DNA of 64,000 nt from Alphaproteobacteria bacterium. GTDB lineage: Bacteria > Pseudomonadota > Alphaproteobacteria > UBA828. The stretch spans positions 1,792,001-1,856,000 of the forward strand of contig OZ243972.1 in the NCBI GenBank assembly GCA_965214705.1, in the 5' to 3' direction. A model generated the notes under the pieces. It saw nothing but the letters and a program-made list of their open reading frames with translations. It was not told where the DNA came from and did not search any database. The first letter of the stretch is position 1. Each line of letters begins with the position of its first letter. This document shows, piece after piece, positions 1-4,882 of this stretch. The translations under genes and the position numbers were made by a program.

Positions 1-225
1 GAAGCCGCTACGCGGAGTTAGCGGCGTAGAGTTCATTCATTTCCGAGGCGTCGCGGGTGCCGTTTGTTCTGTGCGTTCGCTTCCCGGTTGCGTCAGTGGC
101 GCTCCGCCCGTCGGGTGGCGGATCCCCAGCAGCCTCCCGATCACCAGTGGTTAGCATCGACCCCTGCGACGGACCGTCGCCGGATCGGTCCGGCGGCGCG
201 CCGTCGCGATCCAGGGAGATCGATA

Positions 226-1104
226 ATGACCGGGACCGCGTGCGACACGAACACCGTCACCCCTCTTCGCCAGCGCATGGAGGAGCAGCTCCGCATCGCC
301 AATCTGGCCGCGAGCACGTCCAAGGCCTACATCTGCGAGATCAAGAACCTGGCCAGGTACTACGACGCCTCGCCGGACGAGCTCGACGCCGAGCAGGTGC
401 GCCAGTGGTACCTGGGGCGGATCGACAAGGGGCTCAGTCCGGGCACGACCAACGTCTCCTTCGCCGCGCTGAACTTCCTCTACATCGACACACTCGGCTG
501 GCCTGACCATGTCGCCGGCCTGCGCTCCCGCAAGAAGCCCGGCAAGCTGCCGCGCTACATGTCGGAGCAGGAGGTCGAGCACCTCATCCTTGCGACACCC
601 GACCTCCGCCACCGTGCTGCCATTGTCACCGGCTATGGCGGCGGGCTCCGCATCTCCGAGACCTTGGCCATCAAGGTCGGCGACATCCTGTCGGAGAAGA
701 AGCTGCTGCACATCCCCTCCGGCAAAGGCGGCACCGAGAGAATGGCACCGTTGCCGGACATCGTCATCCACTACTTGCGCGTCTACTACAGGAACATCTG
801 GCCGCGTCCGACGAGCTGGCTCTTCTACGGCGTCTCGCTCGACAGGCCCATCGCAACGGAGACCTTGCAGGCCGCCTTCAGGAGGGCGCGCGACATTGCC
901 GAGCTCGACCGCAGCTACACCTTCCATTGCCTGCGCCATTCGGCGGCGACCCATCTCCTCGAGCGCGGCGGCGATATCGAGGTGATCCGGGACATGCTCG
1001 GCCATCGAAGCGCGAACACGACCCGTCACTACGCCCGCGTCACCGGCAAGATGTTCGAGGGCCTCGACCACCCGATCTCAGGCTTCGCAGCGTTGCGCAA
1101 CTGA
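226..1104 (+). CDS. Tyrosine recombinase/integrase (N-terminal SAM-like + catalytic domain)
   Basis: Motifs GLRISE, GKGG, HCLRH, LGH, TRHY. ATG at 226 follows an AGGGAG RBS. Confidence 0.93.
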   Translation: MTGTACDTNTVTPLRQRMEEQLRIANLAASTSKAYICEIKNLARYYDASPDELDAEQVRQWYLGRIDKGLSPGTTNVSFAALNFLYIDTLGWPDHVAGLRSRKKPGKLPRYMSEQEVEHLILATPDLRHRAAIVTGYGGGLRISETLAIKVGDILSEKKLLHIPSGKGGTERMAPLPDIVIHYLRVYYRNIWPRPTSWLFYGVSLDRPIATETLQAAFRRARDIAELDRSYTFHCLRHSAATHLLERGGDIEVIRDMLGHRSANTTRHYARVTGKMFEGLDHPISGFAALRN

Positions 1105-1407
1105 CGGCGCGTGGAGGCCGAACGCGCGGGCGTGGCGGAGATCTTCCGCCGCGCCGGCGCCGCTTTCCGTGAGCGCCACAAAGGGCGCATCGACGCCGCC
1201 CGGCTCAAGGTCATGGGCGCCATCGAGGCGTGCCGCACCGCCGTGCTCGGCGGCCACATGTACGCCTGCGAGGGCTGCGGGCGCGAGCATCCGCTCTTCA
1301 GATACCATGAGCACGGTGGCACCGAATCGATTCTGGCGGTTAGACAAGCTCGGAGAGAAGGCCAGCACCTTCTCTCCGAGCGGAATCGTCAACAACGGAG
1401 TGGACGG

Positions 1408-2604
1408 ATGTCGGATGGTCCAGACACGACCGCGCTGACAGGCGCAAGTAGTAGCACGATTTATGTCGCGGTGGAGATCAGCCTCAAATCGTGGATCGTT
1501 GGCGTGCATTGCCCGGATGCCTCGGGTGGCAGCATCAGCATCCACACACTGGCTGCTGCCGACACGGCGGGACTGTTGGATCTCGTCGGGTCGGTGCGGG
1601 AACGGGTGGCGAGGGAGCTCGGCGCCCGTCCTCGGGTGATGCTGACCTACGAGGCGGGCTACGAGGGGTTCTGGCTTGCCCGCGATATCGAGCGCCGTGA
1701 CGCGGAGATCGATATCTTCATGAACGATCCGGCGAGCCTGCGGGTGAACCGGCGCGCCAAGAAGAAAAAGACCGACCGTATCGACGCGAGGAGGATGGTT
1801 CGGGCTCTGAAGGCATGGGACCAAGGCGATTCGGAGGCCATGTCCTGGGTGCGCGTGCCCGATGTGGACCAGGAGGATGCCAAGCGCCTGCTGCGCGAGA
1901 GGGACACGCTGATCAGCGAGCGTACCCGCGTCAACAACCGGATCAAAGGGCTCTTGCAGTTGCACGGCATCTTCGATCTGGCGCCGCGCAAGCCGGACTT
2001 CCTCGAACGCCTCGCGACCGCGCGGACGGGCTATGGGGCGCCGTTGCCGCCGCGTGCGCGGGCAGAGATTGAGAGGGCGGTGGGGATGCTTCGCCTGGTT
2101 GAGGAGCATATCGAGATGATCGAGGCCGAGAAGAGGGCCCTGCTGAAGGCTGGCCGGAAAGCCCAGGACGCGACCAATCGTGACGGGACGGCGATGATCG
2201 CGGCGCTTACGCGCATCCATGGCATCGGCCTCAATGACGCCACACTGCTGGCTGGCGAGGTGTTCTATCGGGACTTCCGCAATCGCCGGGAGTTGGGCAG
2301 CTGGGCCGGGTTGACGTCGGTGCCGTGGGCGAGCGGAGATGTCGACCACGATCTTGGCATCAGCAAGGCCGGCCCCTCGCATGTCAGGAAGCACATGATC
2401 CAGATGGCTTGGCGCTGGCTGAAGCTGCAACCGGAAAGCGCGATCACGAAGTGGTTCCACGCCTACGTCGCCAGGGATGCCGGTGGCGGGAGGGACCGGC
2501 GAGCGAGGAAGCGGGCGATCGTGGGGGTCGCGCGCAAGCTGCTGATCGCGCTGTGGCGCTATGCCACCCAAGGACTGGTGCCTGAGGGCGCCATCGTCTC
2601 CTGA
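1408..2604 (+). CDS. IS110/IS1111 DEDD recombinase (transposase)
   Basis: VAVEIS..YEAG..KTDRIDA RuvC-like motifs; C-terminal GIG and GLTSVPWASG catalytic-serine region; GGAG RBS upstream. Confidence 0.93.
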   Translation: MSDGPDTTALTGASSSTIYVAVEISLKSWIVGVHCPDASGGSISIHTLAAADTAGLLDLVGSVRERVARELGARPRVMLTYEAGYEGFWLARDIERRDAEIDIFMNDPASLRVNRRAKKKKTDRIDARRMVRALKAWDQGDSEAMSWVRVPDVDQEDAKRLLRERDTLISERTRVNNRIKGLLQLHGIFDLAPRKPDFLERLATARTGYGAPLPPRARAEIERAVGMLRLVEEHIEMIEAEKRALLKAGRKAQDATNRDGTAMIAALTRIHGIGLNDATLLAGEVFYRDFRNRRELGSWAGLTSVPWASGDVDHDLGISKAGPSHVRKHMIQMAWRWLKLQPESAITKWFHAYVARDAGGGRDRRARKRAIVGVARKLLIALWRYATQGLVPEGAIVS

Positions 2605-2679
2605 GGGCACCGGCCGAACGAACGGGAAAATACAGGAGGTTCCGACGTGGTCGGACGCGGCCGCGGAGGATGCCGGGCA

Positions 2680-2830
2680 AGGCGTGTGACCGGGCAAGAG
2701 TTGGGTCGCCGCTTGGCACCGTTCTACAGATGGGTCCCGCCTCCCGGAACGTCACCACCGCTTGGATGCGGTATTGGGGTCACGGAGCCGGCAAGCGCCG
2801 GAGTTCCGAACCGGATAAGAGCTGAGCAGC
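2680..2830 (+). ncRNA. Predicted bridge/seek RNA core (target-binding and donor-binding loops) in the IS1111 right end
   Basis: Two stem/internal-loop/hairpin units. Their unpaired strands match the target (2693-2703, 2723-2728) and the circle junction (2770-2774, 2815-2821). Transcript ends are unknown. Confidence 0.72.
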
Positions 2831-2929
2831 GTGGCGGATCGCTGCGTGGAAACGACGTTCTGCCTGGACATCGGCCGCGGATTCGAGTGGAGAGATTGCG
2901 AATGCCATTGACGTAGATGAAGCCGGGCC

Positions 2930-2949
2930 TTGCGGAGAGAGCTCATAAG
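2930..2949 (+). promoter_or_regulatory. -35 half of a circle-junction promoter
   Basis: TTGCGG (2930-2935) lies exactly 17 nt from TACCAT (1303-1308) once 2949 is joined to 1300. Confidence 0.75.
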
Positions 2950-4264
2950 AACTCCTGCCGCAACCGCCACTGCCCCACCTGCCAGGGTCTCGCCGCCAAC
3001 CTCTGGAGCGAGGAGCGCGCCGGGGACATCCTGCCGGTGCCCTACTTCCATGTGGTCTTCACCCTGCCCAAGGAGGTTGCCGCCATTGCCTTCTGCAACC
3101 GCAGGGTGGTGTTCGACATCCTCTTCCGGGCCGTCGCCGAGACCCTGCGCACCATCGCCGCCGATCCCCGCCACGGCGGCATGCGCATCGGCGGCACCGC
3201 GGTCCTCCATACCTGGGATCAGAAGCTCCGCTTCCACCCGCACCTGCACGTGGTCGTGCCCAACGCGGGCTTCGACGTAGACAGTGGCGAGTGGAAGACG
3301 GGGAGCACCACCTTCCTCGCCCCCGTCAAGGTCCTCGGCAGCCTGTTCCGCCGCCTCTTCCTCGAGGAGCTCGCCCGCGCCCACGGCCGGGGGGACCTGG
3401 AGTTCCACGGCACCCTCGCCCACCTCGCCAATCCCGGCGAGTTCCACGCCACGCTTGCCGCCGCCCGGGCCAGGGACTGGGTGGTCTACGCCAAGCGGCC
3501 CTTCCGCGGGCCTGAGCAGGTCTTCCGGTACCTCTCGCACTACACGCACAGGATCGCCATCTCCGACAGCCGCATCGTCTCCTTCGACGGCGAGACGGTC
3601 TCCTTCCGCCACCGAAAGCCCAAGGCGCCGGGGCAGAGAAAGCCGCGCTACGGCATCGCCACCGTGAGCGCCGACGAGTTCATCCGCCGCTTCCTGAGGC
3701 ACGTCCTGCCGGACGGCATGCACCGCACTCGCTACTTCGGCATCCTCGCCAACGGCTGCCGCGCCAGCACGCTGGAGAGAGCACGCCAGGCTCTCGGCGC
3801 CCTCGGCTGCGCCGCCCCCGAGGGAAGCGTGGACGGCGCTCAGGCCGAGCCCGACGAAGAGCCCGAGATCGGCACCGCGCCCGTGGCCTGCCCCCACTGC
3901 GGCGGCGTCATGCGCCTCGTCCGCGAAATCCGCCGCCGCCATGAGCCCCGCTCGACGCGCGGCCCGCCGGCGCTGCCGCCGACCCACAGGGGGAAACCGT
4001 GAGACGCCCGCTCGCTTCGGCCCCGCGCAACGGCGCCAAAGCGCCGACGCACGACCGAACCTGTCTCCGCTTGAGCCGGGCTGACAGCCCTCGGCTCACA
4101 CCCCGCTCAGTCCTCGCAGCGTGCGCCCGCATGCCTGCCGAAAGACCGGCGCGAGCGTCGATTTTATGCGCAACTCTGCTGCCGGTGGATGCCGCCTGAC
4201 GCTGACATCAGCGCACTTTCCACATAGCTCAACTTCGCCTCTCGTGGCCCGCGGCTTCGTTCAA

Positions 4265-4306
4265 AAGGGTTGGGCAGGCTCTCGAGAGAGAGCCTGCCCA
4301 ACCCTT
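4265..4306. repeat. Perfect 19-bp hairpin with GAGA loop at the element end
   Basis: AAGGGTTGGGCAGGCTCTC-GAGA-GAGAGCCTGCCCAACCCTT. Confidence 0.9.
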
Positions 4307-4309
4307 AAC

Positions 4310-4882
4310 CTTGTCCGTCCTCTTGTTGTAGTAGGGCTGCAGGAACTGGTTCATGATCATCGAGTCCGAAACTAGGTTCTCGATGATGTCGAAGCCTGCA
4401 TCCCGCGCCCGCTTCGCCGCATCGACGTGCATCTGGATGACGGCGCGGATGTCGTCATCATCCATTTCGCAGGTGCTCGCCAGGGGAATCGCCTCCGACG
4501 GCGCTTGACTGGGCGCACGGCTGATCGCGCGGGATTCACCGCTCTGAGAGTGCAAACCGGCGTAGTAGAGTTCGACGCCGGCCAGCGCGCCGTGCGCGTG
4601 AATGCTGTCGGTTACGTGCCGCAGGCTGATAACGTCGCCTTCGTCCCAAAGGCGCGCGGACCAATGCGGCGAATCATCCGATTCCGGGTGGATCGCGGTG
4701 TACTCGATGAAGACAGTCCCCCAACCGCCTTCGGCCTTCATGCCGCGGAACGCGGCCTGGGTGCCGGGACGATCGGAGCCCGCGCTGTTGCAATGGGGCG
4801 TCTGCCAGAACCGATTCTTCGTTGCTTTTGGACCGACTTTGACCGACTCAAACAAAACGTCGTGTTCTGGATTTCGCGCCAT
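4310..4882 (-). pseudogene. Trimethylamine/histamine-dehydrogenase-like flavoenzyme (OYE family), 3'-truncated
   Basis: MARNPEHDVLFE..KNRFWQTPHC..KAEGGWG closely resembles the TMADH N-terminus. It breaks after NKRTDK at ~190 aa, whereas the family is ~700 aa. Confidence 0.85.

Follow-up and report, generated by a model that had tools for sequence, protein, structure and literature searches.

An IS110-family insertion sequence with a predicted guide RNA that is very probably aimed at conserved codons of IS91-like transposases

We analysed a 64,000-nucleotide stretch of DNA (the window, whose positions serve as coordinates throughout) from the 7.9 Mb genome of an alphaproteobacterium (contig OZ243972.1), in which the transposase gene of an integrase-associated IS91-like element is interrupted by a 1650-bp insertion sequence (IS). 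Comparison of this IS with its other copies, with its empty sites and with its relatives strongly suggests that it is an autonomous member of the IS110 family, with a guide RNA aimed at the L-Y-N-S-C codons of such IS91-like transposases. The anatomy of the element, its scarless and site-specific insertion, the repetition of insertion events, the covariation within the RNA structure and the covariation of the guides with both the flanks and the ends of the element were computed here. For the production of the RNA and its binding by the transposase, the use of a circular form as the donor and the chemistry of strand exchange, we rely on homology to IS621, ISEc11 and related elements.

Scarless and repeated insertion into an IS91-like gene

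The copies of the element carry labels (L005, L008, L015, L021 and so on), with the copy at 1300-2949 serving as the reference (Table 1). Its left junction with the interrupted gene reads CTCTTC/AGATACC (1299/1300; here and below a slash within a sequence marks the insertion point) and its right junction CATAAG/AACTCC (2949/2950); the boundary can also be drawn one base further right, with an A being shared. The insertion lies without a scar between the codons for F and N of the IS91-like Zn-finger motif and has produced no target duplication. Such insertion into a fixed sequence, with a short core shared between the target and the ends, is as expected of an IS110 element. A search of the genome with the 189 bp to the left of the insertion recovered 102 hits, of which 73 run on uninterrupted as CTCTTC/AACTCCTGCC, the empty site that a preliminary description of this DNA had put forward. 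A further 18 run on with the IS, and the other 11 comprise four with another insertion 10 bp upstream, two with small scars, three diverged relatives that read GCTTTAC/AATTCC and are empty, and two that are cut off. Occupied sites are longer than empty ones by exactly 1650 bp.

Fourteen copies of the IS share 100% identity; alongside them are full-length variants at 97, 96, 92 and 86%, three copies that are split by another insertion, and remnants. Among the 21 full or split copies an IS91 left junction is seen in 18 and an IS91 right junction in 19, with two copies (L015 and L021) lying elsewhere. The identity of the 14 copies with their near-identical flanks, combined with the evident activity of the IS91-like elements (about 100 copies), might be explained by a single insertion, after which the composite was amplified by intact IS91 transposases acting in trans or by homologous recombination, with no continuing targeting. 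We consider this highly unlikely in light of the distribution of occupied copies across the IS91 haplotypes. Alignment of 87 IS91 copies with paired halves (MAFFT, faster mode; 82 kept and five dropped for having at least 100 differences) yielded 76 informative single-nucleotide polymorphism columns that define 39 host haplotypes; the 15 occupied copies fall into 12 of these, seven of which also contain empty copies. This indicates repeated insertion (or loss) rather than the spread of one amplified composite, though gene conversion among the IS91 copies could have shuffled the haplotypes. Furthermore, the junction recurs at the identical position in an IS91 relative with only 85% identity (L008) and in metagenomic IS91-like genes with a different codon, and diverged variants of the IS (96 and 92%) occupy the same site. 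A single insertion would also leave the guide complementarity and covariation described below unexplained.

Several individual copies show additional rearrangements. The copy L005 (C1:4023382-4025031), which is 100% identical to the reference, has a normal IS91 right flank and an unrelated left flank that shares only CTCCGCTCTTC, and may represent a rearrangement or a second near-target. At L009/L026 (C1:1874702-1874866) the last 165 bp of the IS, including part of the donor domain, are repeated directly as a tandem partial duplication of the right end, with the junction CATAAG/AGCCGG followed by the IS91 right flank. Two otherwise intact IS91 copies (C1:3005632 and C2:15360) are changed exactly at the insertion point, one having an extra AG (CTCTTC-AG-AACTCC) and the other being without AAC (CTCTTC/TCCTGCC). 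The form with the extra AG is the remnant expected of recombination between AG 1300-1301 and AG 2948-2949, and may have been left by excision in a shifted register. The element splitting three of the IS copies is a 2.75-kb IS66-family element, found at three different positions with 8-bp overlaps (C3:1715127-1717880, labelled L065; C3:687935-690688; C2:520095-522848), resulting in a three-deep nesting of IS66 within the IS110-type element within IS91.

Table 1. Features of the insertion sequence, its predicted RNA and the interrupted host element (window coordinates)
Feature	Position	Strand	Basis
IS110/IS1111-type insertion sequence, 1650 bp	1300-2949	+	identical copies; empty sites lack exactly 1650 bp
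Left end: AG donor core, ATACC right-donor segment 1302-1306, ATGAGC repeat arm 1307-1312	1300-1312	+	sequence
Transposase gene, 398 aa from ATG 1408	1408-2604	+	Pfam, NCBIfam
Predicted bridge/seek RNA core: basal stem, target arm, donor domain	2673-2867	+	alignment A2, pair counts
Target-binding arm (predicted): stems 2681-2684/2738-2741 and 2688-2691/2733-2736, apical hairpin 2704-2720	2681-2741	+	comparative
Right-target guide GGCAAGAGUU, 5' loop strand, complementary to top strand AACTC(C)TGCC	2693-2702	+	covariation
Left-target guide GUUCUAC (2721-2727), same sense as left flank GCTCTTC, then AGAU	2721-2731	+	covariation
Donor-binding domain (predicted), long-range stem 2746-2753/2854-2861	2746-2861	+	covariation
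Right-donor guide GGUAUU, complementary to GATACC of left end	2770-2775	+	short; covariation with relatives only
Left-donor guide GGAUAAGAG, same sense as right end CATAAG plus AG	2813-2821	+	covariation
Right end: GCTCAT repeat arm 2941-2946 and AAG	2941-2949	+	sequence
Integrase + IS91-like element copy, about 2667 bp without the insertion	1-4312	+	copies align over 2666-2670 bp
Tyrosine recombinase gene of host element	226-1104	+	Pfam Phage_integrase 4.4e-33, Phage_int_SAM_4
IS91-like transposase, 5' part, first half of Zn-binding domain, ends CCG CTC TTC	1111-1299	+	Pfam Zn_Tnp_IS91
IS91-like transposase, 3' part, starts AAC TCC TGC CGC (NSCR)	2950-4002	+	Zn_Tnp_IS91, Y2_Tnp

The transposase and the ends of the element

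The transposase gene, whose ATG is the first after a ribosome-binding-like GGAG, codes for a protein recovered by the NCBIfam model NF033542 ('IS110 family RNA-guided transposase') with 174.4 bits against a cut-off of 140. It combines the N-terminal RuvC-like DEDD domain (Pfam DEDD_Tnp_IS110, PF01548; 33 bits against a cut-off of 29, with only profile positions 74-152 matched) and the C-terminal Transposase_20 domain (PF02371; 45.8 bits) of the IS110 family. An SG dipeptide (VPWASGD), a candidate for the SG motif with the conserved Ser of the family, lies inside the Transposase_20 match, and the N-terminal strand reads VAVEIS, at a place where a D is usual. The gene is preceded by 108 nt and followed by 345 nt of non-coding sequence, which is the IS1111-type layout. 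The subterminal repeat ATGAGC/GCTCAT is perfect over 6 bp, with extensions of 7 and 3 nt, as compared to 7-17 bp in the IS1111 group; in a relative from the same genome (group C) the left end CCTATGGGGC and the complement of the right end CTTATGGGGC are alike at nine of 10 positions, with an 8-bp perfect core TATGGGGC. By its layout and by the order of its guides (see below) the element would be classified as IS110 family, IS1111-type, with a length outside the IS1111 range.

The reading frame of the transposase has no stop in the 108-nt left end and continues upstream into the gene that the element interrupts, giving open frames of 499 aa in IS91 and of 748 aa in the istB gene entered by L021; the frame of L079 is likewise continuous with that of its DDE_Tnp_1 target. 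The reference lineage has four targets, of which three are entered in sense and in frame, for which we estimate a chance likelihood of about 2%; the fourth, the site of L015, is antisense. Read-through expression from the host gene into the transposase could occur at such sites.

A predicted two-domain RNA downstream of the transposase gene

Relatives of the transposase were drawn from within this genome (groups with 53-55% identity), from further genomes of its genus (52-55%), from a Defluviicoccus metagenome-assembled genome (88%) and from metagenomes (93-95%). A scan of GTDB representative genomes found three relatives, and a plasmid collection gave only four weak partial matches. The regions downstream of the transposase in these relatives display one common architecture, which we evaluated by counting 27 pairs in six helices across 17 sequences; these relatives, on which all covariation counts given here are based, are few and related to one another. 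As many as 89.4% of the cells are paired, versus 35-47% when the partners are slid by one to three columns, 15 of the 27 pairs change on both sides, and none of 500 shuffles reaches the observed covariation score. The three helices of the target arm are 97-100% paired, with six of their 11 pairs changing on both sides, and the same is true of six of the eight pairs of the long-range stem (helix 4) that closes the donor domain. A basal stem (2673-2678 with 2862-2867) can be made out in the reference lineage as well as in the relatives, and stayed uncounted column-wise owing to alignment offsets. The donor domain is further predicted to contain hairpins at 2758-2771, about 2784-2807 and 2826-2845. 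A CGG/CCG pair offered by RNAalifold for the donor unit is broken in L042 and L050, and the hairpin 2758-2771 was preferred. Since a single-sequence fold of 2640-2949 was uninformative (z = -0.75, with the guide paired in a local hairpin), we relied on the comparative structure instead.

This structure retains part of the fold in the preliminary description, which had framed two guide strands by an outer stem (GTGAC 2686 with GTCAC 2751) and an inner hairpin (2704-2720). The inner hairpin is present and comparatively supported, and both proposed guide segments indeed fall on the two strands of one internal loop (2692-2703 and 2721-2732) of the covarying target arm. The outer stem has to be redrawn: the comparative data favour GACC 2688-2691 with GGUC 2733-2736, and the segment 2746-2753 pairs with 2854-2861 instead of closing the earlier stem (2686-2690 with 2751-2755). 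The element is thus predicted to possess what characterizes the IS110 family, namely a covarying non-coding RNA with one loop that can pair with the target and another that can pair with the donor.

Public sequencing runs were examined as contigs, which cannot reveal transcript ends, strand or expression. Among the contigs from DNA runs, empty forms occur next to occupied ones, as any multi-copy site would show; those from RNA libraries include a 92-93% relative, and we infer nothing from the fact that one of them stops at 2867, close to where the RNA is predicted to have its 3' end.

Target guides covary with the flanks of the insertion

All the segments earlier proposed as guides are present at their positions (GGCAAGAGTTG at 2693-2703, TCTACA at 2723-2728, GGTAT at 2770-2774 and ATAAGAG at 2815-2821). 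In the comparative structure the right-target guide matches its own flank at nine of 10 positions and the istB flank of L015 at all 10. The left-target guide shows five identities in seven to its own flank (six of seven pairable) and six to the Y-variant flank of L082 (seven of seven pairable, with an rU.dG wobble). To compare guides and flanks across non-redundant elements (10 for the right guide and nine for the left, the loop registers of L032 and L054 being slightly off in the alignment), the reverse complement of the 10-nt 5' loop strand was matched to a 16-nt window at the right junction, and 7 nt of the 3' loop strand to the last 7 nt of the left flank. The cognate sum for the right guide was 78, as against a permuted mean of 50.2, and that for the left guide was 46, as against 22.3; not one of 20000 permutations was as high in either case. 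For instance, the right guide and right flank are respectively ACCACCAGTT and AACTGGTGG in L031, ACACCCGTGC and GCACGGGTG in L039, and AACATCACCT and AGGTGATGT in L060. The loops of L021, an 86% variant from the same genome, read AATAGGCGTT and GTTCCAT, and the empty form of its target reads GTCCAC-AA-CGCCTAT. The right junction of L021 (C3:483684-485333) is one A short relative to the empty sites at C3:-1620786 and C1:-49796; hence, the istB gene that it interrupts could not be restored in frame by precise excision.

An alternative in which the protein picks the target, for example by DNA shape or by a motif around C/AAC, with the complementarities being coincidental or serving end recognition only, deserves consideration as C/AAC at the crossover is common to all targets of the reference lineage. 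The left match of five in six is also weak on its own, arising in 1634 of 5000 dinucleotide shuffles of the 345-nt end; a match of at least 10 in 11 to the reverse-complement target arose in 41 of them. However, both target matches in the observed order and spacing arose in only one of the 5000, and in the 10 non-redundant elements the loops change together with the flanks while the stems are kept. Moreover, experiments on relatives have shown RNA guidance (PMC11187229, PMC11208160 and PMC11208158). We regard target choice by the protein as scarcely credible and favour guidance by the predicted RNA. The segment complementary to the top strand (2693-2702) lies 5' of that complementary to the bottom strand (2721-2727), and this is the order described for IS1111-type seekRNAs, in which the former is on the 5' side (PMC11187229). 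Taken together, the profile hits, the RNA covariation and the guide-flank covariation bear out the earlier assignment to the IS110/IS1111 type, with the target loop and the donor loop encoded downstream of the transposase.

In two sets of sequences we observed other forms of the loop strands. A G>A change at 2694, inside the right guide, occurs in public-run contigs of 90-93% relatives (X2 and X20), one of which runs on into an IS91-like flank; the changed guide would match TGT in place of TGC as the Cys codon. In the group B relatives (55%; C3:526241, C3:533275 and C3:1762598) the 3' loop strand reads GGCAAG-AGAU, and so has in sense orientation the GGC AAG AG(T) Walker-A codons, which are read antisense by the right guide of the reference.

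Donor guides and the proposed mechanism

The second loop of the preliminary description, with GGTAT and ATAAGAG matching the junction of a circular form, fares well where relatives are compared, as both segments covary with the ends; the 5-nt GGTAT alone is not significant. The 3' donor segment tracks the right end (ATAAGAG with CATAAG plus AG and, in relatives, ATAAAAG with CATAAAAG, ATATAAGG with CATATAAGG and ATGTGAGT with CATGTGAGT). Similarly, the 5' donor segment tracks the left end (GGUAUU with GATACC, GGGAUC with GATCC). As its core the donor has AG, as do the targets of the relatives, whereas the targets of the reference lineage have AA, with the right guide accordingly ending in UU; the junctions all have AG on the left and AA on the right. 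The AGAU that follows the left guide equals the first four bases of the IS, such that 2721-2731 reads like the finished left junction, and this continuation may play a part akin to a handshake, although in some relatives the fourth base deviates (AGAA).

Together with homology to IS621 and the IS1111-type seekRNA elements, these features suggest a mechanism in which the right end would encode a bridge (seek) RNA of about 195 nt, with 2693-2702 pairing with the top strand on the right side of the crossover and 2721-2727 with the bottom strand on its left side. The element would excise as a circle with the junction CATAAG-AG-ATACC, which the donor domain would read while the target arm holds the IS91 site. 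A transposase tetramer would then exchange strands at the 2-nt core. The insertion splits the IS91 transposase gene and inactivates it.

Which target do the guides fit best?

The ideal target deduced from the reference guides is TTCTAC/AACTCTTGCC, and the best-fitting target of the predicted guide would be CTC TAC/AAC TCC TGC. The abundant IS91-like element of this genome has TTC (F) in place of TAC, and insertion into it consequently takes place despite an A.A mismatch, an A.C mismatch and a U.G wobble. The preliminary description had read the left-guide mismatch as denoting Y. This is corroborated by L082 and L083 (metagenomes, 95% transposase identity), which lie in IS91-like genes reading CCG CTC TAC/AAC TCC TGC, where the reference left guide is pairable throughout; TAC at the F/Y codon is likewise found in IS91 relatives on public-run contigs. 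The proposed aim at the (Y/F)NSC codons of IS91-like genes is thus upheld by the junctions of the 21 copies, by L008 and by L082 and L083. The suggestion of a natural mismatch tolerance also holds, as the A.C mismatch in the right guide (TCT versus TCC) recurs at every IS91 insertion seen, including L082 and L083.

The same guides have other destinations. L015, a 97% variant with the same guide pair, lies on the opposite strand in the Walker-A codons (GTGKS/W) of an IS21 istB gene, where the left guide fits at three of seven positions; a second copy of this site is empty. A 93% relative (L079-L081) with the guide GGCACGAGTT, which would fit AAC TCG TGC C, lies in a DDE_Tnp_1 transposase gene at TCTAC/AACTGGTGG, with a fit of seven in 10. 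These two cases imply that mismatches on one half are tolerated when the other half fits. Most copies in this genome sit at YNSC/FNSC codons of IS91, and sister elements sit in istB, DDE_Tnp_1, rve, IS6 and IS110 genes. Copies of the IS91 gene are disabled, as the preliminary description had it, but to call the transposon specific for IS91 is too strong, as the same guides also lead into istB.

A number of observations weigh against the IS91 codons as the intended target or against the assignment of the element itself. The ideal 16-mer has three mismatches to the IS91 site of its own genome (the U.G wobble, an A against T at -2 where the site has TTC rather than TAC, and the A.C mismatch at the Ser wobble base), and the right guide fits the L015 istB site better (14 of 14, versus 10 of 11 for IS91). 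Two single-copy sites in the genome with two mismatches to the ideal 16-mer are unoccupied. Over 1-4500, Rfam 15 gave no match at E <= 1 to the putative RNA, and the RNA, the circle junction and the activity of the element are predictions from sequence only. A search of the PDB by sequence matched no solved structure to the transposase, the solved protein of IS621 giving no match at E <= 0.01. Finally, the transposase has 398 aa, versus 330-350 aa for IS1111 (PMC11187229), and the subterminal repeat is perfect over only 6 bp, for which reasons placement in the IS1111 subgroup is tentative.

Some of these points would also follow if the IS91 site were an abundant near-cognate sink, filled only because about 90 copies are on offer, with the guide being tuned elsewhere or in the midst of retargeting, for example to the istB GTGKSW Walker A. 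In addition to the better fit of the right guide at istB and the TCT/TCC mismatch at each IS91 insertion, such a scenario would account for the lack of a perfect match to the ideal 16-mer in this genome and in 401 genomes of the class. The latter contain 13 one-mismatch matches, none of them in an IS91 context, and a control with the reversed pattern was similar. The presence of the GGCACGAGUU guide variant (L079-L081) at a seven-in-10 site further shows that off-target landing occurs. Nevertheless, we think the sink scenario unlikely, because the left guide fits istB at only three of seven positions, just one of the two copies of the istB site is occupied, and three diverged IS91-like lineages have been entered (the main type, L008 and L082/L083). 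With nine of 10 positions on the right and seven of seven pairable on the left, the Y variant of the IS91 LYNSC codons is the best overall fit seen, and we retain these codons as the target, which is not the only site used.

The interrupted host element

The host element begins about 5 nt before the start of the window and consists of the tyrosine recombinase gene, the IS91-family transposase gene and a terminal hairpin near 4265-4308, where a GC-rich inverted repeat closes it. It is present in about 100 copies, mostly >99.5% identical, which make up roughly 3% of the 7.9 Mb genome. The interrupted gene combines an N-terminal Zn-binding domain with a Y2 HUH transposase domain, as is typical of the IS91 family. 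The insertion splits the former (Zn_Tnp_IS91, PF14319) into profile positions 1-48 and 52-90 of 90, and the 3' part matches Y2_Tnp (PF04986; 4.2e-54) as well as the IS91 family transposase model NF033538 of NCBIfam (324 bits against a cut-off of 125). Four of the IS91-like copies contain a 4.1-kb insertion in the same Zn-finger region, exactly 10 bp upstream of the IS site (C1:791408-795540, labelled L064; C1:4037210; C3:1615236; C3:2984178). On the opposite strand it encodes a pair of reverse transcriptases, of which one has a group II intron maturase domain, indicating that a second kind of RNA-guided mobile element targets this short stretch.

Comparison with known systems

IS4321 and IS5075 are IS1111-type elements reported to have a fixed target in the inverted repeats of Tn21, to ride on that transposon and to be capable of crippling it. 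In contrast to their non-coding terminal-repeat target, the targets here are conserved coding motifs, across a clade of related elements. Mobile group II introns resemble the present element in being RNA-guided, site-specific and often located inside other mobile elements, but as retroelements that depend on a reverse transcriptase and an intron RNA they are unrelated to it in protein and mechanism.

With the IS1111-type seekRNA elements ISEc11, ISKpn4, ISPa11 and ISPst6 (Siddiquee et al. 2024, PMC11187229) the element shares a DEDD transposase, a long non-coding region downstream of tnp, a segment complementary to the top strand followed by one complementary to the bottom strand, overlapping at the crossover, and scarless site-specific insertion. 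It differs from them in the length of the transposase, in the short perfect subterminal repeat, in having its target inside the transposase coding sequence of another IS, and in that its RNA is predicted. Like IS621 (Durrant et al. 2024, PMC11208160; Hiraizumi et al. 2024, PMC11208158), it is predicted to have a bipartite RNA, in which the target-binding unit and the donor-binding unit each read opposite strands to the left and right of a 2-nt core, and its guides covary with the target and the ends. Unlike IS621, it would have its RNA in the right rather than the left end with the order of the guides reversed, a core of AG/AA instead of CT, and, in place of a simple internal loop, a donor unit that looks multi-branched and has a long-range stem. 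The mechanism is of a known kind, bridge/seek RNA recombination having been known since 2024, and it is the target habit that appears undescribed: we found no description in the literature of IS110/IS1111 elements aimed at IS91 or istB coding sequences, with the qualification that the supplementary target tables of the 2024 papers, which lie outside that search, may list such cases.

Target habit of the clade and its implications

Of 16 distinct target sites, eight fall by Pfam in transposition genes of other insertion sequences, namely the IS91 Zn finger, the Walker A and the C-terminus of IstB, DDE_Tnp_1, the rve core (L060), the end of rve_3 (L038), DDE_Tnp_IS240 (L054) and the Transposase_20 of an IS110-family element (group C of this genome). 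The other sites lie upstream of a creatinase-like gene (L032), in a multi-copy repeat (the L036 group), or have no hit or assignment (L035, L039, L050, L057, L025 and the second group C copy); Pfam recovered nothing at the flanks of L031 (right side), L036, L039, L050 and L057. The eight of 16 is a small count from related elements, with no formal null for the density of IS genes, and it is biased upward since multi-copy targets favour both proliferation and discovery. With these provisos, we tentatively raise the possibility, which we hold to be somewhat doubtful, that bridge-RNA insertion sequences of a Defluviicoccus-like lineage, this element among them, form a clade of hyperparasites specialised on other insertion sequences, whose guides drift between the conserved coding motifs of transposition genes.

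The locus provides an in-genome record of tolerance, with one guide pair at three versions of the target having 0 to 2 mismatches plus wobbles, and the sister elements form a graded series (97, 92, 88 and 86%) in which the loop letters have changed to suit new targets on a conserved scaffold. Both are useful for establishing specificity rules in the engineering of bridge recombinases. Aiming at conserved codons in the transposition genes of other transposons also bears on the competition between insertion sequences in IS-rich genomes. Were the hyperparasite proposal true, the conserved motifs would keep the guides working on diverged hosts, explaining the natural mismatch tolerance, and insertion in sense and in frame may let the transcription and translation of the host IS run into the transposase gene of the parasite. 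Expansions of insertion sequences could then be curbed by such elements, as in this genome, where 18 of about 91 IS91-like copies have been knocked out.

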